Of a DNA stretch of 40,209 nucleotides, positions 1 to 40,209 are shown one piece after another. The notes below the pieces were generated by a model. That model was not told where the DNA came from and did not search any database. It saw nothing but the letters and a program-made list of their open reading frames with translations. The stretch lies in sequence record OZ035809.1; one strand, written 5' to 3'. The position numbers and the translations under genes are program-made. Positions within the stretch are counted from its first letter, which is position 1. Each line of letters begins with the position of its first letter. Source of the stretch: Kayfunavirus T147P5.

Positions 1-33
1 TACAAAACGATTAAAGGAGGTGGTAAAACATGA
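1..33 (+). CDS. holin (gene 17.5-like) C-terminal fragment; valid only if the window ends are contiguous (wrap-around)
   Basis: Frame 1 is open from nt 1 to TGA at 31-33 (YKTIKGGGKT*), in the same codon phase as the holin ORF that runs off the window at 40209; stop overlaps the gene 18 ATG (ATGA). Lys-rich tail fits a holin C-terminus. Confidence 0.3.
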   Translation, partial: YKTIKGGGKT

Positions 34-293
34 CGCAGATGGACTTAGAGAAGTTCCTCTTAATGCTAGATACTGAACGTGCTCGACTCATGCTGCAAGA
101 CCTGCGGGATGACTCTAAGCGTTCACCTCAGCTTTACAACGCCATTGAGAAGCTACTGGCTCGTCACAACTTCGTGCTAAGCAAGGTGTCTGTTGACGAG
201 AAGACGCTCGCTGATATGGAGGCCCTGAACGCAGAGTACGATAAGGTGCTCTCAGCGACTGAGGATAATGACACCGGGTATGGTGTTCAATAA
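30..293 (+). CDS. terminase small subunit (T7 gp18-like)
   Basis: RBS AAGGAGG at 14-20; 87 aa; shares LxMLDT...RSPQLYNAI.KLL.RH.F with T7 gp18 (recalled); lies just upstream of spanins and terminase large subunit. Confidence 0.85.
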   Translation: MTQMDLEKFLLMLDTERARLMLQDLRDDSKRSPQLYNAIEKLLARHNFVLSKVSVDEKTLADMEALNAEYDKVLSATEDNDTGYGVQ

Positions 294-295
294 GT

Positions 296-341
296 GTTAG
301 ACTCAAGGTCATTACTATATGTAGTGGCCTTTATGGTTAAC
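296..341 (+). promoter_or_regulatory. RNase III-site-like RNA hairpin (analogous position to T7 R18.5)
   Basis: Inner stem AAGGUCA(305-311)/UGGCCUU(325-331) with one G-U pair, outer stem GUUA(296-299)/UAAC(338-341), 13-nt loop; near-identical element at 16436-16481 and 9519-9565. Confidence 0.5.
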
Positions 342-354
342 ACTAGGAGGATAT

Positions 355-759
355 ATGGAAGGACAATATTTAAGCGGTGGTTACTATAAAGTAACTATCA
401 ATGGTAAGGTTCACGGGGTTCATCGGGTTAAATGGGAGATGGCGCATGGGCCAGTTCCGGCTGGCTACGTCATTGACCATATAGACCGGAACACTCTGAA
501 CAATGAGCTATCAAACCTAAGGGCAATACCTAAAGGCGCTAATGGTGCTAATACCTTATCGTCTAGAGAGTTACCAAAAGGAGTCTACTCACGGTTCGCT
601 AAAAGGCTTAACGCTACAGTGTACTATGGAGACATACGCATTGGTGGCATCAAGAGAACCCATGAGCCTACTACCAATCTACAGAAAGTTGAGGACTGGG
701 CTAAAGAGGCCCACGCAAATCTTCTTAAGGAGGTGTATGGTGTGGTTAACGTTTATTAA
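355..759 (+). CDS. HNH homing endonuclease
   Basis: RBS AGGAGG 345-350; 134 aa with HGVHRVKWEMAHGPVPAGYVIDHIDRNTLNNELSNLR (classic HNH motif); inserted between terminase small subunit and spanin, overlapping the spanin start. Confidence 0.8.
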   Translation: MEGQYLSGGYYKVTINGKVHGVHRVKWEMAHGPVPAGYVIDHIDRNTLNNELSNLRAIPKGANGANTLSSRELPKGVYSRFAKRLNATVYYGDIRIGGIKRTHEPTTNLQKVEDWAKEAHANLLKEVYGVVNVY

Positions 760-1177
760 GAGAGTGGTCCCTTGGCTAGTGGCAGGACTCCTGTTCGCCT
801 CTGGTTACTGGGTAGCTGACAATAAGTGGGAGGCTAAAGTAAATGAAGAATACATCACGAAACTTGAGGCACGAGAGAGTCAACGAACTGCTATCCAAGC
901 ACGAGTCGATGAAGTCTCAGCGGAGTGGCAGGACAAGATGTCCTCGCTGGAAGGCTCTACTGATAGGATTATTAATGACCTTAACCGCGATAACAGGCGG
1001 CTGCTCGTCAAAGTCAAGACCTCAGGTCTCAGCGAGCCAGATTACAGTAGATGCTTCCCTAATGGTCGAGTCGAACTACACCCAGAGACTTCTAAAAGTC
1101 TTATCCGAATAACGCAAGAAGCTGACCTTAAGGAGAAAGCTTTACAGGAAACCATAAGGAGGTTGCGTGGCGAATAA
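737..1177 (+). CDS. i-spanin (Rz-like, T7 gp18.5-like)
   Basis: ATG 737 with RBS AAGGAGG 725-731; N-terminal TM segment ([17 protein letters not shown]); resembles T7 gp18.5; the ORF-track start at 542 is an in-frame upstream extension without RBS. Confidence 0.8.
843..1112 (+). CDS. o-spanin (Rz1-like lipoprotein, T7 gp18.7-like), embedded in +1 frame of i-spanin
   Basis: Signal/lipobox [14 protein letters not shown]; C-terminal VDASLMVE resembles T7 gp18.7 (VDSSLMVE); fully nested within 737-1177 as in T7. Confidence 0.75.
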   Translation: MKNTSRNLRHERVNELLSKHESMKSQRSGRTRCPRWKALLIGLLMTLTAITGGCSSKSRPQVSASQITVDASLMVESNYTQRLLKVLSE

Positions 1178-2936
1178 GAAAACACCTGCTGAAAGACAGG
1201 CAGAAATGACCCAAAGGATGAGGGATGACTTCGTGTTCTTCATATTCGTTCTATGGAAAGCTCTGAGCCTTCCTGTTCCAACACGCTGCCAGATAGATAT
1301 GTGTAAGAAGCTGGCGGCTGGAGATAATCGACGCTTCATCCTTCAAGCATTCCGTGGTATTGGAAAGTCGTTCCTGACCTGTGGTTTCGTGGTCTGGAAG
1401 TTATGGAATAACCCAGACTTGAAGTTCATGATTGTGTCGGCCTCAAAGGAACGAGCCGATGCGAACTCCATCTTCATCAAGCGTATCATCGACCTCATGC
1501 CTCAGCTTCAGGAACTCAAACCTAAACAGGGGCAGCGAGATGCGGTTATCAGCTTCGACGTGGGACCTGCCAAGCCAGACCACTCACCTTCGGTTAAGTC
1601 CGTTGGTATCACTGGTCAGTTGACTGGTAGTCGTGCTGACATCCTGATTGCCGATGACGTTGAGGTTCCGAACAACTCAGCGACTCAGGCTGCACGAGAC
1701 CGTCTATCAGAGCTTGTGAAAGAGTTCGACGCTATCCTGAAGCCGGGAGGTACGATCATCTATCTGGGTACTCCTCAGAACGAGATGACCCTGTACCGTG
1801 AGCTGGAAGGTCGTGGGTACACCACTACTATCTGGCCCGCTCGTTATCCACGCGACAGGAAGGACTGGCAGTCTTACGGCGACCGTCTGGCTCCTATGCT
1901 TCAGGCAGAGCTGGAAGAGGACCCTGAGTCCTTCTACTGGCGTCCGACTGATGAAGTACGCTTCGATGATACGGACCTGAAGGAACGTGAGCTGTCCTAC
2001 GGTAAAGCTGGATTCGCTCTACAGTTCATGCTTAACCCGAACCTGAGTGATGCCGAGAAGTACCCTCTGAAGCTCCGTGACCTTATCGTAGCCGACTTGG
2101 ACCCAGCGTCCAGCCCAATGGTCTACCAATGGTTGCCAAACCCTCAGAACAAGCGTGAGGACGTTCCTAACGTGGGACTCATGGGTGACTCGTACCACAC
2201 GTATCAGACTGTAGGTTCTGCCTTCAGTTCGTACACCCAGAAGATTCTGGTCATAGACCCTAGTGGTCGTGGTAAGGATGAAACTGGCTATGCGGTACTA
2301 TACCAGCTCAACGGCTATATCTTCGCTATGGAAGTTGGCGGTATGCGTGGTGGCTATGAAGACTCTACGCTGGAAGCCTTGGCTAAGATTGGTCGTAAGT
2401 GGAAGGTCAACGAGTACGTCATTGAGGGTAACTTCGGTGATGGTATGTACCTTGAGTTATTCAAGCCTGTAGCTGCCCGTATCCATCCTGCTGCTGTAAC
2501 TGAAGTGAAGAGTAAGGGTCAGAAAGAACTCCGCATCTGTGACGTTCTGGAGCCTATCATGGGGTCTCACCGACTTATCGTTAACGCTGCTGCTATAGTC
2601 CAAGACTACCAGTCTGCCTCTGATAAGGATGGTGTTCGTAACCCTATCTACTCTCTCTTCTACCAGATGACACGTATCTCTCGTGAACGTGGAGCCTTGG
2701 CACACGATGACCGACTTGATGCGCTGGCTATCGGTGTACAGTTCTTCGTTGAGTCTATGGCTAAGGATGCCAACAAAGGCGAACGTGAAGTCACTGAGGA
2801 GTGGCTGGAGGAACAGATGGAGAACCCACGGAAAGGCTTCGAGTCCATCCACACGGAGTTCTGGGACAATGGGGTCCGGGTAACTCACGATACGGACGAC
2901 GAGCTTGGACTAGGGTCCTACGTTACGTTCCACTAG
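1167..2936 (+). CDS. terminase large subunit (T7 gp19-like)
   Basis: 589 aa; long collinear similarity to T7 gp19 ([77 protein letters not shown]). Confidence 0.95.
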
Positions 2937-3030
2937 CTGAATGAATAACTATAGGCGAAAACTGAATTAATACGCGGTTAGTAACCTATAGTTACTACCA
3001 GTCTAACCTACTGTTTTACAAGGAGTTTGG

Positions 3031-3053
3031 ACTTAACTATCACTATAGGGAAG
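3031..3053 (+). promoter_or_regulatory. phage RNAP promoter (phiOR-like)
   Basis: ACTTAACTATCACTATAGGGAAG; matches the 11-copy consensus; +1 G about 3048; between gene 19 and gene 19.5 as in T7. Confidence 0.8.
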
Positions 3054-3232
3054 ACCCCCGGTTACTTATAGTATTACTGTAGTGAATATACATATGCAGA
3101 CTTTATGCAAGACCTTAGGAGGCAGACTCCGAGTTCTTACCTAAGGCTTGCACCGATGGAAGGAGGGTGATATTAATCATAATCCCTCCAATACAGATAG
3201 TAAAGACCATAGATACAGGAGGTATGTAGCAT

Positions 3233-3391
3233 ATGGCAAAGACCAAAGCTGTACTTAAAGCTCTGGCGACCAATCGAGCTACATACAGGTTTCTTGCTGC
3301 TGTTCTACTTGCTGCTGGCGTTACTGCTGGAAGTCAGTGGGTCGGGTGGGTCGAGACTCTCGTATGTTCTCTGGTCTCTCAGTGTAATTAA
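3233..3391 (+). CDS. gp19.5-like small protein
   Basis: Not in ORF track (52 aa); RBS AGGAGG 3216-3221; MAKTKAVLKALATNRATYRFLAAVLLAAG...LVCSLVSQCN resembles T7 gp19.5 (..RVTYRFLVVL...VVCSIL..); same position after gene 19. Confidence 0.6.
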   Translation: MAKTKAVLKALATNRATYRFLAAVLLAAGVTAGSQWVGWVETLVCSLVSQCN

Positions 3392-3460
3392 CGCAATCAT
3401 GGTAACGATTCATGAGCGGAAGACCTAAGGTCAGTACGTGGATAAAGACTCACTCTACTG

Positions 3461-3599
3461 ACCTTAGCTACTGTAGTCAAGGACTTTAGGTAACACCATT
3501 CAGGCTCTCACCTCTGGTCTACCTACTGATTGGTTCACTGGTCGTCATCCGATGGTCTTAGACCTACGGTCCTTGACCTACAGTAGCTGGTTCCTAAGG
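3461..3599. repeat. imperfect inverted repeat (about 24-bp arms, about 85-bp spacer) just left of the presumed terminal repeat
   Basis: Left arm ACCTTAGCTACTGTAGTCAAGGAC (3461-3484) vs right arm GTCCTTGACCTACAGTAGCTGGT (3569-3591), reverse-complementary with one indel and one mismatch. Confidence 0.5.
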
Positions 3600-3637
3600 A
3601 GGGACGATGAGTTTTGGACCAAAAGTTTGAGACCACA

Positions 3638-3826
3638 TCTCACAGTTCAAGAACCTCAAGTCTCCCCATAGGCCATCTTTCAGTCCAGACCAAAGGCCCT
3701 ACCCCAGTCTATCATAAGGTTAGACCGATGGTCAAGACTTCAGGTCAACGATAGGTTGTGGCTATGGCTTAGGGAAGGACGATAGGTAGGGACTATGGGT
3801 CTGTCTTTGAGTCTCTATCTGTATCA
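3638..3826. repeat. probable direct terminal repeat (single collapsed copy) containing the physical genome ends
   Basis: Begins TCTCACAGTTCAAGAACCTCAAGTCTCCCCATAGG, closely resembling the first bases of the T7 genome (recalled); 246 bp downstream of gene 19.5; end near CTATCTGTATCAG is approximate. Confidence 0.45.
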
Positions 3827-3910
3827 GACCATAAGTCACTAACCTACAGTCTCACTAACCTACAGTCTCAACCATAAGACACCAACACCTACAGTCATAG
3901 ACCTACAGTT
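3827..3910. repeat. short direct-repeat array (ACCTACAGT units)
   Basis: ACCTACAGT at 3842, 3858, 3887, 3901 with tandem 16-bp CTCACTAACCTACAGT x2; analogous to the CCTAAAG-type arrays after the T7 terminal repeat. Confidence 0.5.
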
Positions 3911-4020
3911 ACTAGACACAAAGCTATAGACTTAAGGTCTAAGACATGTTAGTCAAAGACTATATCCTCTTACACCATGGGGCCGACGATAGCTTAATCA
4001 ATATTATTTCAAATTACCTA

Positions 4021-4049
4021 TTGACTATAGGTCCAGACTATGGCCTAAT
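4021..4049 (+). promoter_or_regulatory. candidate host sigma70 early promoter (T7 A1-like)
   Basis: -35 TTGACT (4021-4026), 17-bp spacer, -10 CCTAAT/CTAATA (4044-4050); resembles T7 A1 architecture (TTGACT-17-GATACT). Confidence 0.45.
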
Positions 4050-4161
4050 AGCTTACGTCAACACGACACGGCAACAACCGGATAGTGAAGACGCCGGGTC
4101 ATCCCGGTTAAGTAGACAGCCTGATAAGTCATACGAAAAACAGGCAGATGACAGAAAGTAG

Positions 4162-4191
4162 TTGACAAGCAGTAACGATAAGATGTAAGCT
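4162..4191 (+). promoter_or_regulatory. A2/A3-like promoter remnant (TTGACA ... TAAGAT) with non-canonical spacing
   Basis: TTGACA 4162-4167 and TAAGAT 4179-4184 separated by only 11 bp; alternative -10 TAAGCT at 18 bp is weak. Confidence 0.25.
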
Positions 4192-4306
4192 GTACCACAT
4201 CGAAACAACGGTGACGACCGACACTGAAACGGTCTACCTGAAGTCCTCTGACTGAAGGGAATGCTCTTTAACAATCTGGATAAACTCTTAATGTGCGCCG
4301 ATAGCG

Positions 4307-4378
4307 ACTAACTACAGGGTCTTTGAGTCTACATCTGAAGGCCCTGGCTGATAGTCACTAACTTAACGGATGGACACT
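4307..4378 (+). promoter_or_regulatory. conserved early intergenic element E1 (probable RNA processing/regulatory site)
   Basis: GACTAACTACAGGG...GGCCCTGGCTGATAGTCACTAAC; diverged copy of E2/E3; immediately precedes first early ORF. Confidence 0.4.
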
Positions 4379-4624
4379 ATGAAACACTTAAGCACAATCA
4401 CTAATCACAATGAAGTATTCGTGAACACTAAAGGTTATGCGTGGATTCAGCTTAAAGAGATGAGAGGAGCGCGTCACCGTGTGGTAGTTCGCAAGGTATC
4501 AAGCAAGCCGTTCAGCAACTACAGCGTAGATATTGTGCGTATAGACAACGAGACTTACCTGATAGACTCGCAGATAACCGTGAGTCCTACAGCGGGCATC
4601 TCAGCTCCTTATTTCGCTAACTGA
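4370..4624 (+). CDS. hypothetical early protein
   Basis: 84-aa ORF; alternative start ATG 4379 fits the RBS spacing seen for E2/E3; first gene after the host-promoter region. Confidence 0.6.
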   Translation: MDTMKHLSTITNHNEVFVNTKGYAWIQLKEMRGARHRVVVRKVSSKPFSNYSVDIVRIDNETYLIDSQITVSPTAGISAPYFAN

Positions 4625-4627
4625 GAG

Positions 4628-4697
4628 TGATTAACTACAGGTCGTTAGAATCATAGCGGCCTGACTGATAGTCACTAGCAACCTAAGAGGATTCATT
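4628..4697 (+). promoter_or_regulatory. conserved early intergenic element E2
   Basis: TGATTAACTACAGGTCGTTAGAATCATAGCGGCCTGACTGATAGTCACTAGC; about 90 percent identical to E3; fills the intergenic gap; RBS AAGAGGA follows. Confidence 0.4.
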
Positions 4698-4976
4698 ATG
4701 AGACTGAACAAAGCTACAGCAGAAGCCTTCCGCAAGGAGCTTGAATCAAGATTATTGTGTGGAGTGGCGGAAGGAGCCGCTCGATATAAAGAGAATGGTC
4801 TAACGTTCAAGCGCTTTATGTGGGATTGCTATCACGGAGTGGGCCATAAAAAGTCGCAGGAAATAATCACCAGCAACAATGCGGAAGTGCAAGTGATAGG
4901 AGGATACATGGCTAACGTGAAGGATTCACACATAGAGACAATGCTTAAGAATGCACTTAAAGATGTAGCCTACTAG
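4698..4976 (+). CDS. hypothetical early protein
   Basis: 92-aa ORF with RBS AAGAGGA; no recognisable motif. Confidence 0.65.
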   Translation: MRLNKATAEAFRKELESRLLCGVAEGAARYKENGLTFKRFMWDCYHGVGHKKSQEIITSNNAEVQVIGGYMANVKDSHIETMLKNALKDVAY

Positions 4977-5046: not shown

Positions 5047-5550
5047 ATGGAACGTAACGCTAACGCATACTATGAGCTGCTGGCTGCAACCGTTGAGGCA
5101 TTTATCGAGCGTATTCAGTACGACCACCTGACTCAAGATGATGACTACAGCGATGCGCTGCATGAGGTCGTAGACGGTCAGGTTCCACACTATTACCACG
5201 AGATTTTTACGGTGATGGCTGCTGATGGTATAGACCACGAGTTCGAAGACTCTGGGCTGATGCCTGAAACCAAGGACGTAACGCGTATACTACAAGCTCG
5301 CATCTATGAGGCGCTTTATAACGATGTGTCTAATAGCTTGGATGTAGTCTGGTTTGAGGCTGAAGAGGCAGACGAAGAGGATGAATATTGGGTAGTTGAC
5401 GCTAAAACAGGCGCAATAATTGTGCAAGCTGTAGCTCTTGAGGTCGCTACTGCATGTGCCAATGTCAACTATGCAACAGGTCGCCACCTGAAGGTGGAAG
5501 ACATCAATGATAACGTAGTGTTCGACCCTGCGGCTGAGGACTGCGAGTGA
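5047..5550 (+). CDS. ocr: Ocr-like DNA-mimic anti-restriction protein (T7 gp0.3-like) with about 54-aa C-terminal extension
   Basis: [43 protein letters not shown] nearly identical to T7 Ocr core; acidic stretch [10 protein letters not shown]; 167 aa versus 117 aa in T7. Confidence 0.8.
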
Positions 5551-6433: not shown

Positions 6434-6456
6434 ACTTAACTATCACTATAGGACTC
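6434..6456 (+). promoter_or_regulatory. phage RNAP promoter immediately upstream of the RNAP gene
   Basis: ACTTAACTATCACTATAGGACTC; full consensus match; leader 6457-6525 contains direct repeats (AAGTGAAAGAC x2, GACTTTAAGT x2). Confidence 0.75.
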
Positions 6457-6525: not shown

Positions 6526-9207
6526 ATGAGCGTCATCTCTATTGACAAACACGACTTCTCTGATGTGTCGAACGCCATTGAGCCGTTTAACCTGCTGGCT
6601 GACCACTACGGGCAAGACCTTGCAGTCAAACAGCTTCAGCTTGAGCATGAGGCATACACTGAAGGCGAGCGACGTTTCATCAAGAACCTTGAGCGGCAGA
6701 CTGAGCGAGGGGAACTGGCAGACAATCAGGTCGCCAAGCCTTTGATGCAGACTCTGGTTCCTAAGATTGCGCAAGCCGTCAAGGAGTGGCATGAAGGTCC
6801 AGACGGGAAGCTGTCAACCTCTCGTCCGAGCGTAGCGTTCACCATGTTAAGCACTGAAGAGAAGGCCGTCAAGGACCGCTCTCTTCGCATCTCCTGCGAG
6901 TCTGCTGCGGTTATCATACTGAAGGTCATCCTCTCCAAGCTGGTCAAGCCTGAAGGTATACCGATTACACCGATGGCCTCCGCGATAGGTCGCACACTTG
7001 AGGATGAAATCCGATTCGGTCGCATTCGTGACAAGGAGAAGGAGCACTTCAAGAAGGCAATAGCTGATAACCTGAACAAGAGAGCCGGGGCATCATACAA
7101 GAAAGCCTACATGCAAGCGGTCGAGACATCCATGCTGGAGCAAGGCCAACTAGAAGATGCGTGGGGAACTTGGAGTCCGACCGAGGCTGTCCACGTTGGA
7201 ATCAAGATGCTGGAGATTGTCATCCAGTCAACACAACTGGTCGAGCTTAAGCGTTATGGTGCTGGCAATGCAGCGGCTGACGTTGAGATGGTCCACCTGT
7301 CAGACTTCTGGGTCAAGAAGATGGCACAACGCGGCTTCAGCCTTGCGGGCATCGCTCCAGTCTACCAACCTTGCGTAGTTCCACCTAAGCCGTGGACTGG
7401 TGTCGTAGGCGGTGGGTACTGGGCCAAAGGTCGCAGACCATTACCACTGATTCGCTTAGGGTCTAAGTCTGCGGTGGCACGTTACGAAGACGTGTATATG
7501 CCTGAAGTCTATGACGCTGTTAACATCATCCAGAATACACCTTGGAAAGTGAACAAGAAGGTTCTGGACGTGGTGAACATGGTCGAGAAGTTGAACAACA
7601 CGCCTATTGATGACATCCCTCAGATGGAGCCACTGAAGCCTGAAGAATATGCGGGTGAGACTGAAGAGGAACTCAAGGCGTGGAAGAAAGCGGCTGCTGG
7701 TATCTATCGCCGCGAGAAGGCCAGACAGTCACGCAGGTTGTCGCTGAGCTTTATCGTTAACCAAGCGAACAAGTTCTCTCAGTTCAAGGCCATCTGGTTC
7801 CCGTATAACATGGACTGGCGCGGTCGCGTCTACGCTGTGCCGATGTTCAACCCTCAGGGTAACGACATGCAAAAGGGTCTCCTGACTCTGGCAGTCGGTA
7901 AGCCTATTGGTGCTGATGGTTTCAAATGGCTGAAGGTCCACGGTGCAAACTGTGCGGGTGTCGATAAAGTCACCTTCGAGGAGCGCATCAAGTGGGTGGA
8001 AGATAACCACGACAACATCATGGCTACCGCTAAGGCACCGATGGACAGCATTGAGTGGTGGGGTAAGTTAGACTCTCCGTTCTGCTTCCTAGCGTTCTGC
8101 TTCGAGTATGCTGGCGTAATGCACCACGGTTTGTCTTACTCCTGCTCGCTGCCGATAGCTTTCGATGGGTCCTGCTCTGGGATTCAGCACTTCAGCGCGA
8201 TGCTTCGTGATCACATCGGTGGACATGCAGTAAACCTGACGCCTTCCGGTAAGGTCCAAGACATCTACCGCATCGTGTCTGACCGCATTGAGGAGGAGCT
8301 TAAAGTCCTGCTGGTTAATGGCACGGACAACGAGGGGGTCACTAACGAGGATAAGAAAACTGGCGAGATTACCGAACGTATCAAGCTGGGGACACGAGAG
8401 CTGGCCCGCCAGTGGCTGACTTACGGTATGTCACGCAAGGTTACTAAGCGCTCAGTCATGACTCTGGCCTATGGGTCGAAAGAGTACGGCTTTGCAGACC
8501 AAGTTTACGAGGACATCGTGATGCCAGCGATTGACTCAGGGTCTGGCGCTATGTTCACTGAACCAAGCCAAGCGTCTCGCTTCATGGCTAAGATGATTTG
8601 GGAAGCTGTGAGTGTGACCGTAGTTGCTGCAGTTGACGCGATGAAGTGGCTTCAAGGTGCTGCCAAGCTGCTGGCGGCTGAAGTGAAGGACAAGAAGACT
8701 GGAGAAATCCTGAAGCCTTGCCTTCCGGTACACTGGGTCACACCTGATGGGTTCCCGGTCTGGCAGGAATACCGCAAGAAGGATACCACTCGTCTGAACC
8801 TGATGTTCTTAGGGTCATTCAACCTTCAGCCTACCGTCAACAAAGGCACGAAGAAGGAGTTGGATAAGCACAAGCAGGAGTCAGGAATTAGCCCGAACTT
8901 CGTCCACTCACAAGATGGTAGCCATCTCCGCAAGACTGTAGTCCACACTCACCGCAAGTATGGCGTGATGTCATTCGCAGTGATTCACGATAGCTTCGGG
9001 ACCATCCCGGCTGACGCTGAGTATCTGTTCCGGGGTGTCCGTGAGACGATGGTCGAGACCTACCGCGACAACGATGTGCTGCTTGACTTCTACGAGCAGT
9101 TTGAATACCAACTTCATGAGAGCCAGCGCGACAAGTTGCCTGAGCTTCCGAAGAAAGGTAAACTGAATATTGAGGACATTCTATCTTCAGACTTTGCATT
9201 CGCTTAA
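6526..9207 (+). CDS. DNA-directed RNA polymerase, single-subunit (T7 gp1-like)
   Basis: 893 aa; collinear with T7 RNAP (DFSD...PFN.LADHYG, FQPCVVPPKPWTG, WFPYNMDWRGRVYAV, FCFLAFCFEYAG, HDSFGT, C-terminal FAFA). Confidence 0.97.
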   Translation: MSVISIDKHDFSDVSNAIEPFNLLADHYGQDLAVKQLQLEHEAYTEGERRFIKNLERQTERGELADNQVAKPLMQTLVPKIAQAVKEWHEGPDGKLSTSRPSVAFTMLSTEEKAVKDRSLRISCESAAVIILKVILSKLVKPEGIPITPMASAIGRTLEDEIRFGRIRDKEKEHFKKAIADNLNKRAGASYKKAYMQAVETSMLEQGQLEDAWGTWSPTEAVHVGIKMLEIVIQSTQLVELKRYGAGNAAADVEMVHLSDFWVKKMAQRGFSLAGIAPVYQPCVVPPKPWTGVVGGGYWAKGRRPLPLIRLGSKSAVARYEDVYMPEVYDAVNIIQNTPWKVNKKVLDVVNMVEKLNNTPIDDIPQMEPLKPEEYAGETEEELKAWKKAAAGIYRREKARQSRRLSLSFIVNQANKFSQFKAIWFPYNMDWRGRVYAVPMFNPQGNDMQKGLLTLAVGKPIGADGFKWLKVHGANCAGVDKVTFEERIKWVEDNHDNIMATAKAPMDSIEWWGKLDSPFCFLAFCFEYAGVMHHGLSYSCSLPIAFDGSCSGIQHFSAMLRDHIGGHAVNLTPSGKVQDIYRIVSDRIEEELKVLLVNGTDNEGVTNEDKKTGEITERIKLGTRELARQWLTYGMSRKVTKRSVMTLAYGSKEYGFADQVYEDIVMPAIDSGSGAMFTEPSQASRFMAKMIWEAVSVTVVAAVDAMKWLQGAAKLLAAEVKDKKTGEILKPCLPVHWVTPDGFPVWQEYRKKDTTRLNLMFLGSFNLQPTVNKGTKKELDKHKQESGISPNFVHSQDGSHLRKTVVHTHRKYGVMSFAVIHDSFGTIPADAEYLFRGVRETMVETYRDNDVLLDFYEQFEYQLHESQRDKLPELPKKGKLNIEDILSSDFAFA

Positions 9208-37528: not shown

Positions 37529-40003
37529 ATGGCTGCAACATTCAATGACTATCCAATACAAGGCACTCAGTACCGAGTAGAGTTCCCATACTTAGCACGA
37601 CCATTCGTCCTTGTATACCTAACGTCCTCAGACCCTCTGGTAGCTCCTCTCCTACTTAGACTTAACTCAGAGTACACTTTCATGTCACCATATCTGATTA
37701 ATATCAGTGTTGCTATGGCTGGATATAATGGAGTACGTTTAGTCCGACAGACATCCTCAACACCGTTAGTAAACTTTGTAGATAGCTCAGCACTAACCGC
37801 TGGAGACCTCACAGTTGCCGAGGTTCAATCTATCCATATTGCAGAGGAGGCAAGGGACCAAACCTTCTCAATGACCAAGGAGATGGTAGACGCAGCACGG
37901 GCTTATCTTGATGAGATTGAGAAAGCGCTAGAGGAGATAAACAAGATTCTGGCAAACGGCTTCAATCCTGTAGGGTCGTTCGAGTCTGGTGCTGAAGTAA
38001 CGATTCGAAATGACACGGTTAGCTTAGGGTTCGGTTCATCCATTCAGTATTTCCAGTGGTGGGGTCAATTACCAAAAACTGTACCAGCGGGTTCAACACC
38101 AGAGTCAACTGGTGGATTAGGTAAAGGTAAATGGGTCCCAGTAGGTGATGGTCAGTTGCGCTCTGAGATTACTGTTCTGGACAGTATTAAGGACCTATTG
38201 TCATCTGCACAGGGTCTTGGTACTGTGCGTTCTGTAAAGGGGTACATCTCAGGTACAGACTTCGGTGGTGGTGACTTCTTGTGGGACCCAACATGTCCAC
38301 GGTCTAAACATAACGGCATCACAATATTCAGCCCAACGGTTCCATTCAGCGGCCTGTACGCAGACGTTCCGAGTTTCCACGCAGGGGTAGGAGAAACAGC
38401 ACCTGCCGAGACTGGCTGCTGGAGACGTAAGGATTGTGGACGTAAGCTATTACTGGCTTGGGGTGGAGTGGATGTATCTGGTACTCAACCAGTTGACGCT
38501 ATCTTGACTAGCATGTGTTCGTATGCACACAACACACGTCAGATTCTTGACGCAGAACCTAATGATGAACTTCAGGCTGGATTCTCGACAGGGACTCAAA
38601 CAAAGGATAAGTTCAACGGCTTCACCCAAGCGTCTGTCGTGCTAGAGAATAAGTACGTCACCCTTAGAGGTAACGGAGCTAAGATTAAGACCTATCACCC
38701 AATCCACAAGGAGCGCTCTGTGTTTGTCCTACGAAATGGTGGATATAACATCTCAGGGTTCAAATGGAACGATGGGTATACTGATTTCAGCATAGCACCG
38801 TCTGATACGCAGCATAAGCAGGGTGAATGGTGGCTTGGAATAGTTGCGGATGGCGGTGTAACTCTTGTGGCTGAAGACAACGAAGTAACTGCTGCGCAAT
38901 ACTTTGTCAGGGCTGATGTATTCAATGGTACGTCATGGAATGAGCGTGTATCGGTGCGCAAGAATAAATTCGCATATGTAACGAACTACTGCTTCCTTAG
39001 CCGCAAGCTTCGTCACTATGAGTTTAGTTACAACGAGGTTAGACACAATGGTAGGGAGTGGCATACCTATGGTGAAGCCTGTGCTCCTACTACCTATACC
39101 ACACACTCTGTTATCAGGAGTAATAACTTCTACAATCAGATTGCAATCCAATCGTGTATAACACCCGGTTCATACCACGAGTCGTGTTTAATCGTGAACA
39201 ATCACTGCGAGAGATATCAGGGTATCTTTGTAGAGATTGGGTCATCTAGCAATATTAGCATCCTAAATAACAGCTCCTATTCAACTGGAGAACGTAACGG
39301 GGCGCACATATTGTTGGTATCAGGAGATGTTGATGATGAACCTGCTGGAGGACTGAGTAACCTAATCATCAATGGTAACGTGTTTAAAGGTGGTGGTATG
39401 GTCGTGCGCGAGTATAACACTGGTACGCCAAAACGGTGGGGTATTTCGATTACCAATAACCACATGATTGACTGCCCTCTACCCACAATGACCAACTCTG
39501 CCTACAACTGCATAACTTTCTCAGGAAACTACTGTGAGCCGCCAGCGGACTTCCCGTTCCTTGCGATTGGTGGTAGGAATCCAATTATCGAGAATAACGT
39601 CCTACGAGGAGTGTCTATTAAGATGAGGGACTTAGGGTATCACATCGTAGGACTAACAGTTAGGAACAATAAGTTTGTGGACGGCGCTACTGTGCAGAAC
39701 TTCACTGCTGCAATCGACATGAACTATTACTCCAGACTTGTGGCTGAAGGTAACGACTTCACGGAATACACCTGTCAGTCAATCTTAGCACTTCCTATTA
39801 ACTCAGTTGAGGTGGGCTTCCACAGACTTGGCTCGGCAGAAGGACTTAAGGATACTCCTACTGCGTTATTTGGTGCAAAACTTACTGACGCATTTGCTGG
39901 AGATTTTGTGGCATGTTCCGACCCGCTGTCAAAAGGCGCATATGGATGGGTTATGATGAATGAACCTAATAAAACTTGGGGCAAGATTAACCTAACAACG
40001 TAA
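37529..40003 (+). CDS. tail spike: T7 gp17-like N-terminal adaptor domain fused to a large beta-helix (putative polysaccharide depolymerase) C-terminal domain
   Basis: 824 aa; N-terminal about 150 aa (RVEFPYLARPFV, DLTVAEVQSIHIAEEARD) resemble T7 gp17 N-terminus; remainder has repeated IxxNN/GN strands (LIINGNVFKGG, ISITNNHMIDC, IIENNVLRGVSI, LTVRNNKFVDG). Confidence 0.85.
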   Translation: MAATFNDYPIQGTQYRVEFPYLARPFVLVYLTSSDPLVAPLLLRLNSEYTFMSPYLINISVAMAGYNGVRLVRQTSSTPLVNFVDSSALTAGDLTVAEVQSIHIAEEARDQTFSMTKEMVDAARAYLDEIEKALEEINKILANGFNPVGSFESGAEVTIRNDTVSLGFGSSIQYFQWWGQLPKTVPAGSTPESTGGLGKGKWVPVGDGQLRSEITVLDSIKDLLSSAQGLGTVRSVKGYISGTDFGGGDFLWDPTCPRSKHNGITIFSPTVPFSGLYADVPSFHAGVGETAPAETGCWRRKDCGRKLLLAWGGVDVSGTQPVDAILTSMCSYAHNTRQILDAEPNDELQAGFSTGTQTKDKFNGFTQASVVLENKYVTLRGNGAKIKTYHPIHKERSVFVLRNGGYNISGFKWNDGYTDFSIAPSDTQHKQGEWWLGIVADGGVTLVAEDNEVTAAQYFVRADVFNGTSWNERVSVRKNKFAYVTNYCFLSRKLRHYEFSYNEVRHNGREWHTYGEACAPTTYTTHSVIRSNNFYNQIAIQSCITPGSYHESCLIVNNHCERYQGIFVEIGSSSNISILNNSSYSTGERNGAHILLVSGDVDDEPAGGLSNLIINGNVFKGGGMVVREYNTGTPKRWGISITNNHMIDCPLPTMTNSAYNCITFSGNYCEPPADFPFLAIGGRNPIIENNVLRGVSIKMRDLGYHIVGLTVRNNKFVDGATVQNFTAAIDMNYYSRLVAEGNDFTEYTCQSILALPINSVEVGFHRLGSAEGLKDTPTALFGAKLTDAFAGDFVACSDPLSKGAYGWVMMNEPNKTWGKINLTT

Positions 40004-40047: not shown

Positions 40048-40209
40048 ATGATTGAGTTAGACTTCAAGAATGAGGTCCTTAAAGCCTCTCCTATCGTCGG
40101 GACCGCTGCGGCTGATGGTGCCAGTCGGTTCTTCTTCGGACTTACACTGAACGAATGGTTCTACGTTGCAGCTATCGCGTACACCGTTGTCCAGATTGGT
40201 GTTCTAGTC
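40048..40209 (+). CDS. class II holin (T7 gp17.5-like), 3'-truncated by window end
   Basis: RBS CTGGAGG 40037-40043; MIELDFKNEVLKASPIVGTAAADGASRFFFGLTLNEWFYVAAIAYTVVQIG nearly identical to T7 gp17.5; ORF runs off the window in frame. Confidence 0.8.
   Translation, partial: MIELDFKNEVLKASPIVGTAAADGASRFFFGLTLNEWFYVAAIAYTVVQIGVLV

Follow-up and report, generated by a model that had tools for sequence, protein, structure and literature searches.

A candidate 179-bp direct terminal repeat, present in single copy in the genome of Kayfunavirus T147P5

The sequence analyzed here is one stretch of 40,209 bp from Kayfunavirus T147P5 (OZ035809.1), hereafter referred to as the window. Our main finding is that the window very probably represents a complete genome of a Kayfunavirus (K1F-like, T7 family), which was circularized by the assembler and cut open 29 nt ahead of gene 18, and that the block at 3638-3816 would be its 179-bp direct terminal repeat, present in a single copy. 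From the homology with relatives that carry the repeat twice, we infer that the physical ends of the virion DNA lie at 3638 (left) and at 3816 (right). The virion DNA should therefore be linear and 40,388 bp long (40,209 + 179). It should begin at 3638, continue across the end of the window into positions 1-3637, and terminate in another copy of 3638-3816. With such a linear map the database record could be oriented and annotated correctly, and ORF calls in the junction, such as that at 3946-4161, could be dropped. The repeat itself is an ordinary, well-known T7-family terminal repeat, and adds nothing new to the biology of T7-type packaging. Wider relevance, if any, is confined to a side observation, namely that the short repeats of the junction are part of a palindrome conserved throughout the genome.

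The predicted terminal repeat and its boundaries

As a reference set we used relatives with the repeat at both ends of their records, and we measured the exact length shared between the prefix and the suffix of each record. For T3 and EPr2, the repeat lengths are those annotated in their records. Nine records have the repeat at both ends (T7, T3, K1F, EcoDS1, EPr2, SH5, MopsHU1, Ro45lw and yong1), and in all of them nucleotide 1 aligns to position 3638 of the window (TCTCACAGTTCAAG...). The original prediction had placed the left physical end at this position, and it is supported as the probable end by nine two-copy relatives beginning at exactly this aligned base. All nine reference repeats begin with TCTCA(C/T)AGT, and both the start (TCTCACAGT) and the end (...GAGTCTCT) of the block in the window match the references. 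The length of the repeat is 160 bp in T7, 178 bp in K1F and EcoDS1, 179 bp in EPr2, 183 bp in yong1, 190 bp in Ro45lw, 191 bp in SH5, 195 bp in MopsHU1 and 231 bp in T3, with the Kayfunavirus references ranging from 178 to 195 bp. The similarity extends to the other side of the cut: the 16-20 nt upstream of the right-end copy of the references are identical to those within window positions 3618-3637, and in every Kayfunavirus reference this copy is preceded by AAAGTTTGAGACCACA, which is the sequence at 3622-3637.

The percentage of identity across the repeat alignment is 96.1% with EcoDS1, 93.3% with K1F and 58.5% with T7; the repeats of yong1, EPr2, MopsHU1, SH5 and Ro45lw were also aligned. 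A BLAST search with 3638-3815 returned 226 phage records, with E-values down to 2e-83. In IMG/VR, an exact match to the left-end 30-mer is found twice in seven genomes, first at contig position 1-3 and then 179-196 nt before the end of the contig. Within the window, no second copy of the block was detectable down to 12-mer runs, and the repeat is thus present only once, as anticipated when it was proposed to be collapsed. A repeat that occurs once, with gene 19.5 on one side and the early promoters on the other, has the configuration of a concatemer junction, and is also what any assembly that merges the virion ends returns. The features of the window that are discussed below are collected in Table 1.

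Table 1. Coordinates of the putative terminal repeat, of the surrounding junction elements and of selected genes in the window
Feature	Position	Strand	Remarks
Predicted terminal repeat, 179 bp, single collapsed copy	3638-3816	+	End-to-end alignment with the two-copy repeats of relatives
Perfect 12-bp inverted repeat (CTAAGGTCAGTA / TACTGACCTTAG), 19-nt loop	3425-3467 (arms 3425-3436 and 3456-3467)	+	Centred 192 nt before position 3638
Left short-repeat array (T7 'SRR' counterpart), GACCTACGGTC and ACCTACAGT	3555-3585	+	
Invariant right-end unique block (CGATGAGTTTTGGACCAAAAGTTTGAGACCACA)	3604-3637	+	Directly left of the predicted left-end cut
ATCTGTA, putative counterpart of the T7 class II pause signal ATCTGTT	3817-3823	+	Directly after the repeat
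Right short-repeat array (T7 'SRL' counterpart), GACCATAAGTC, 4 x ACCTACAGT, GACTTAAGGTC	3827-3939	+	
phiOR-type phage RNA polymerase promoter	3034-3051	+	Identical to the core sequence of the phiOR annotated in EcoDS1
A1-type host RNA polymerase promoter (TTGACT...)	4021-4057	+	Aligns to the first EcoDS1 'host RNAP promoter', 469-505
Second host-type promoter (TTGACA-18-TAAGCT)	4162-4191	+	Equivalent to EcoDS1 promoters 2 and 3 fused together
Gene 17.5 (holin), 5' part	40048-40209	+	Open frame continues into window 1-33
Gene 18, small terminase subunit	30-293	+	PHROG 1351, E 1e-34; Pfam PF11123
Gene 19, T7-type large terminase subunit	1167-2936	+	PHROG 38, E 1e-131; Pfam PF22530 Terminase-T7_RNaseH-like, E 6e-38
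Gene 19.5, 52 aa, predicted last gene of the physical genome	3233-3391	+	PHROG 2193, E 6e-25
ocr-like gene	5047-5550		T7-like gene content
Single-subunit RNA polymerase	6526-9207		T7-like gene content

The right boundary was located in the same alignments. Eight of the nine references (T7, T3, EcoDS1, EPr2, SH5, MopsHU1, Ro45lw and yong1) end with ...C(T/C/A)CT directly before ATCTGT, which sets the right boundary of the window at 3816|3817 (GAGTCTCT|ATCTGTATCAG). Since the K1F record falls short of this boundary by 1 nt and the ends of the CR44b record are offset by 1-2 nt, this position can be considered good to about +/-1 nt. The block had originally been predicted to span 3638-3826: its start stands, whereas its end overshoots by 10 nt the one indicated by homology, and the string taken as the end marker (CTATCTGTATCAG) straddles the 3816|3817 boundary. 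A real repeat with a right boundary other than 3816, either at 3826 or at 3815 as in the K1F record, is unlikely in our opinion. Such a shift could be read in the two copies of K1F, which share 178 nt and hence one fewer, and in the offset of CR44b, all the more as a collapsed single copy cannot show where it ends; however, the eight concordant references stop at one aligned base, including ends that were determined by run-off sequencing or by read analysis, no reference extends into ATCTGTATCA, and the K1F repeat is itself quoted as 179 bp (PMC4925675).

The ends of the reference records are more than an assembly convention, because some of them derive from the direct analysis of phage DNA or from reads. 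The termini of SH5 were read by run-off Sanger sequencing of phage DNA, with sharp signal drops at both ends (PMC4925675), the 179-bp repeat of EPr2 was called from reads with PhageTerm (PMC9026810), and the termini of MopsHU1 are likewise stated in its record as derived from reads. The sharp drops in SH5 also weigh against headful packaging, in which the ends would be permuted or variable and 3638-3816 would only be a conserved sequence of the pac region. This type of packaging was read from the PhageTerm output of a Kayfunavirus isolate, together with a 212-bp repeat (PMC13298934), and a circular window with a single copy fits both models. However, the large terminase is of the T7 type (PF22530), and independent records from several laboratories share the same start and end bases, which is not expected under headful packaging, so that we consider this explanation very improbable. 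We thus retain a direct terminal repeat with fixed ends at 3638 and 3816 as the preferred reading.

The record of EPr2 (OM256482.1) annotates the 179-bp repeat at 1-179 and at 501-679, with the 3' portion of gene 19.5 and the spacer of the right end between them. A different architecture of the EPr2 genome was evaluated and rejected: the first copy is followed by sequence from within gene 19.5, and the record was apparently mis-rearranged at its left end.

When compared to K1F (NC_007456) and EcoDS1 (EU734172), the window shows the same start (TCTCACAGTTCAAGAACC...) and end (...GAGTCTCT) of a repeat of 178-179 bp with 93-96% identity, an identical sequence in the preceding 34 nt, the CTATCTGT 'concatemeric junction' motif, and gene 19.5. 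In particular, the first 35 bases of K1F are identical to the 35-mer of the window at 3638, and the annotated A1-type promoter of EcoDS1 aligns with that of the window. The differences from these two phages include about 7-12 substitutions within the repeat, two extra small ORFs before ocr in the window, and the presence of the repeat only once, due to the circularized assembly.

The terminal repeat and the concatemer junction of T7 were reportedly described by Dunn and Studier in 1983. The T7 genome (NC_001604) begins with TCTCACAGTGTACGGACCTAAAGTTCCCCCATAGG, and the window shares with it 28 of 35 bases, including all of the first nine, which confirms the resemblance between position 3638 and the T7 start that had been the initial clue. 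Also the T7-like spacing that accompanied this clue was found, with 246 nt between the end of gene 19.5 and the repeat in the window and 239 nt in T7. The two junctions have in common the location of the repeat between gene 19.5 and the early promoters, an inverted repeat on the left at a distance of around 190 nt, arrays of short repeats on either side, ATCTGT directly after the repeat, and a phiOR upstream. T7 differs from the window in its shorter and diverged repeat (160 bp versus 179 bp, 58.5% identity), in the unit of the short repeats (CCTAAAG versus ACCTACAGT, or GAC-N5-GTC), and in the heptamer (ATCTGTT versus ATCTGTA). The repeat of T3 (NC_003298) starts with TCTCATAGTTCAAGAACC, where 17 of 18 bases are as in the window, and ends with ...GTCCCT|ATCTGTT, but it is 231 bp long, and T3 has three annotated A promoters. 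Finally, phiOL is annotated in both T7 and T3, whereas the window has no phiOL.

Closure and gene content of the genome

The first 25 kb of the window are 93-96% identical to Kayfunavirus (K1F-like, Studiervirinae) records over 84-94% of their length, with the best match in OZ035755.1 (Kayfunavirus AN17P1; 95.9% identity over 93%). On the genus criteria of nucleotide similarity, here measured on these 25 kb, and of T7-like gene order, the window falls within Kayfunavirus.

The description of the window as a permuted complete genome, which was part of the original prediction, is borne out by the sequence across its two ends. The holin gene spans the join, from 40048-40209 into 1-33, and the frame that crosses from 40209 to 1 encodes an intact holin of 64 aa. 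In addition, the join falls inside an ungapped block of 548 bp, 97% identical to MZ234021 and located within the annotated class II holin of that record. The intact frame and the gap-free block indicate that the window ends are contiguous, and therefore that the assembly is closed into a circle. No overlap was found between the two ends of the window, its 40,209 bp fall in the usual size range of the genus (39.0-41.3 kb), and the sister records of the OZ0357xx series share its starting base. All of these observations are at odds with a closure produced by the assembly, in which the genome would be incomplete and sequence would be missing or duplicated at the window ends; this explanation was considered since the window is a linear string with arbitrary ends, but nothing specific speaks for it and we regard it as barely credible.

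Besides the terminase subunits, the T7-like gene content includes an ocr-like gene and a single-subunit RNA polymerase (Table 1). Gene 19.5 has the same length and position as gp19.5 in EcoDS1, CR44b and T7. Two small ORFs on the plus strand (4370-4624 and 4698-4976, PHROG 10124 and 9817, respectively) lie upstream of the ocr-like gene. Due to their presence, gene 0.3 is not the first early gene of the window, whereas it is in K1F, EcoDS1 and T7.

The end of gene 19.5 at 3391 and the next ORF with family support at 4370 are separated by 978 bp of non-coding DNA, in agreement with the approximately 1 kb without credible coding that had been noticed from the sequence. The only ORF of any size within this interval, at 3946-4161 on the plus strand (71 aa), has a full-length match to PHROG 30192 (E 4e-47). 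We nevertheless rejected it as a gene, because its frame is broken by frameshifts or stops in five relatives (EPr2, PE3-1, EcoDS1, yong1 and CR44b) at 94-97% DNA identity, and its substitutions show no third-position bias, being more frequent at codon positions 1 and 2 than at position 3. The stretch at 3946-4161 is better described as conserved non-coding DNA of a promoter region, and PHROG 30192 was probably built from spurious ORF calls over this conserved region.

Sequence elements around the repeat

To describe the conservation of the junction, we built a profile of 10 Kayfunavirus junctions and read it by column. Positions 3604-3667, which correspond to the 34 nt before the cut and to the first 30 nt of the repeat, are essentially invariant. 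Conservation reaches 0.99-1.0 in the windows of the profile covering 3612-3651, and drops to 0.36-0.7 in the flanking ones. A wider set of phages, with Klebsiella, Enterobacter, Shigella and Pectobacterium as hosts, shares only the first 70 nt or so of the repeat, with 79-99% identity (mostly 88-99%). As judged from this pattern of conservation, the block at 3604-3637 and the first 30 nt or so of the repeat are likely to form the region of recognition and cleavage by the terminase.

On the left of this block, the inverted repeat at 3425-3467 folds as DNA with an energy of -11.3 kcal/mol (z -2.9). Its arms are invariant across Kayfunavirus, whereas its loop is variable. An inverted repeat is also present in T7, where it aligns with that of the window and is centred at 39588, 190 nt left of the T7 repeat. 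Chung, Nardone and Hinkle reportedly located the T7 hairpin at about 39,587 in 1990. A hairpin containing the repeat is reported in T7 infection (PMC4281155, with reference to the Chung/Hinkle 1990 papers on T7 packaging).

On the right of the repeat, ATCTGTA matches six of the seven bases of ATCTGTT and is present in all Kayfunavirus junctions examined. T7 and T3 have ...CCCT|ATCTGTT at the same aligned position, and CTATCTGT is annotated as 'concatemeric junction' in EcoDS1 and PE3-1. The concatemer junction of T7 carries the class II pause and termination signal ATCTGTT, and any base change in this signal is reported to abolish termination by the T7 RNA polymerase (bioRxiv 10.1101/2021.01.11.426313). 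The complex of polymerase and lysozyme pauses at the signal and engages gp18/gp19, and maturation starts (PMC3276506). The single changed base of ATCTGTA would disable the signal for the T7 polymerase, so that pausing at this motif in the phage analyzed here is no more than plausible.

The short repeats that had been predicted to follow the block are copies of ACCTACAGT, which occurs nine times in the window, while 0.5 occurrences are expected; five of these copies fall at 3576-3909. The right array also contains a 16-nt unit (TCACTAACCTACAGTC) repeated 2.2 times.

The phiOR-type promoter at 3034-3051 is directed rightward, and its transcripts would run through gene 19.5 and over the junction. 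Overall, nine sites with the phiOR core are detectable in the window, all on the plus strand, as compared to 0.02 expected. No match to a phiOL-type phage promoter was found between 3816 and 6437 with up to three mismatches, and the first phage-promoter match after phiOR is at 6437, just upstream of gene 1. The TTGACTATAGG element at 4021 was evaluated as a possible phiOL and rejected, since its counterpart in the alignment with EcoDS1 is annotated as a promoter of the host RNA polymerase.

Host promoters were placed by alignment to the EcoDS1 annotation; a scan of 2900-4700 for sigma-70 promoters and terminators returned counts no better than shuffles and did not recover the A promoters of the T7 type. 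Two host-type promoters are present in the window and three in EcoDS1. When the two sequences are aligned, about 150 bp between the two TTGACAAG elements are missing from the window. The single TTGACAAG-type promoter near 4160-4215, as opposed to two in EcoDS1 at a distance of about 155 bp, looks like the outcome of a deletion between similar promoters. Further downstream, the sequence at 4255-4365 on the plus strand, just upstream of the first gene, is approximately 99% identical to EcoDS1 amid diverged surroundings. The RNA from 4301-4361 folds into a long imperfect hairpin at the position of the RNase III site R0.3 of T7 and T3, with a z of only -1.6 and no Rfam match; the Rfam search covered 2900-4800 with E-values up to 1 and returned no match.

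Polymerase pausing, a hairpin intermediate and terminase cleavage may be combined, by analogy with T7 and T3, into a scheme for the formation of the ends. Replication would join genomes head to tail into concatemers, each junction of which holds one repeat. The phage RNA polymerase would start at the phiOR-type promoter, cross the junction and pause at ATCTGT on the right of the repeat. The paused polymerase would recruit the terminase gp18/gp19, which would cut at the invariant block spanning 3604-3667 and generate the left end. The repeat would be duplicated by new synthesis, possibly through a fold-back at 3425-3467, leaving one copy at both ends of the packaged genome.

A palindrome enriched throughout the genome

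The ACCTACAGT repeats of the junction are copies of an 11-bp palindrome, GAC-N5-GTC, with the fuller form GACY-NNN-RGTC. The window contains 74 sites, in comparison with 13.7 +/- 4.1 in dinucleotide shuffles, which corresponds to an approximately five-fold excess, and Kayfunavirus genomes contain about 75-80 copies each. Within genes, 56 sites were counted and 16 were expected. The count depends on the spacing: when k varies from 2 to 8, GAC-Nk-GTC is found in genes 8, 1, 15, 56, 22, 19 and 7 times, respectively. Also the inner part of the motif is enriched, with 345 occurrences of AC-N5-GT in genes versus 169 in per-gene synonymous-codon shuffles (z about 18). This excess is detectable in all three frames, and the spacings N2-N4 are at the null. 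In an unbiased scan of 64 x 64 trinucleotide pairs with spacings from 0 to 8, GAC-N5-GTC ranked top in both the window and K1F, and in the distant SH5 a count directed at GAC-Nk-GTC gave 57 sites versus 15, an equally strong enrichment. No enrichment of GAC-N5-GTC was found in T7, T3, SP6 and lambda.

It is close to certain that the enrichment is real. Codon usage and amino acid content are ruled out as its cause by the per-gene synonymous shuffles, by the neighboring spacings, and by the lambda and SP6 controls. Paired GTC sites of the primase were also considered, but they leave the fixed spacing of 5 nt unexplained.

We then compared the sites between the window and K1F. The motif is kept in 61 of the 67 orthologous sites. 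Changes affect 6 of 402 specified positions, that is, the six defined bases of each site, and 21 of 335 spacer positions (p = 6e-4), so that the specified bases are four-fold better conserved. In the same comparison, control patterns show no such difference between specified bases and spacers.

Nine sites lie in the 978-bp junction, at 3422, 3561, 3723, 3736, 3791, 3827, 3929, 4023 and 4090. They occur in the left arm of the hairpin, in both short-repeat arrays, in the A1 promoter and, in three cases, inside the repeat. Every Kayfunavirus junction has 6-11 sites, even when the middle of the repeat is diverged. Along the chromosome, GAC-N5-GTC is densest at the two ends of the genome, with a further peak at 17.5-20 kb, and this holds for all three full genomes.

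A search of the literature for ACNNNNNGT and GACNNNNNGTC returned nothing on this motif in phages. The simplest idea is a dimeric protein that binds or nicks DNA. We tentatively propose, as a possibility with the odds somewhat against it, that a dimeric, sequence-specific phage protein binds or nicks the GAC-N5-GTC sites, and ties the processing of the genome ends or packaging to sites distributed along the whole chromosome. If GAC-N5-GTC were indeed a protein binding site, it would give a new way into the handling of DNA ends by K1F-like phages.

A weaker excess of AC-N5-GT is detectable genome-wide in T7 (231 versus 148) and T3 (200 versus 137), with z about 7 and without the GAC...GTC flanks, and the heptamer repeats of the T7 junction (ACCTAAAGT) fit the AC-N5-GT pattern. 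No AC-N5-GT excess was found in SP6 and lambda.

GAC-N5-GTC coincides with the AhdI/EclHKI restriction site, and despite this it is enriched rather than avoided. Other short palindromes are strongly avoided in the coding regions of the window when compared to synonymous-codon shuffles, namely GATC (5 versus 130), ACCGGT (0 versus 12), GGTACC (2 versus 12), GGTNACC (1 versus 12) and GAC-N3-GTC (1 versus 12). The avoidance of GAC-N3-GTC is shared by K1F, SH5, T7, T3, SP6 and lambda.
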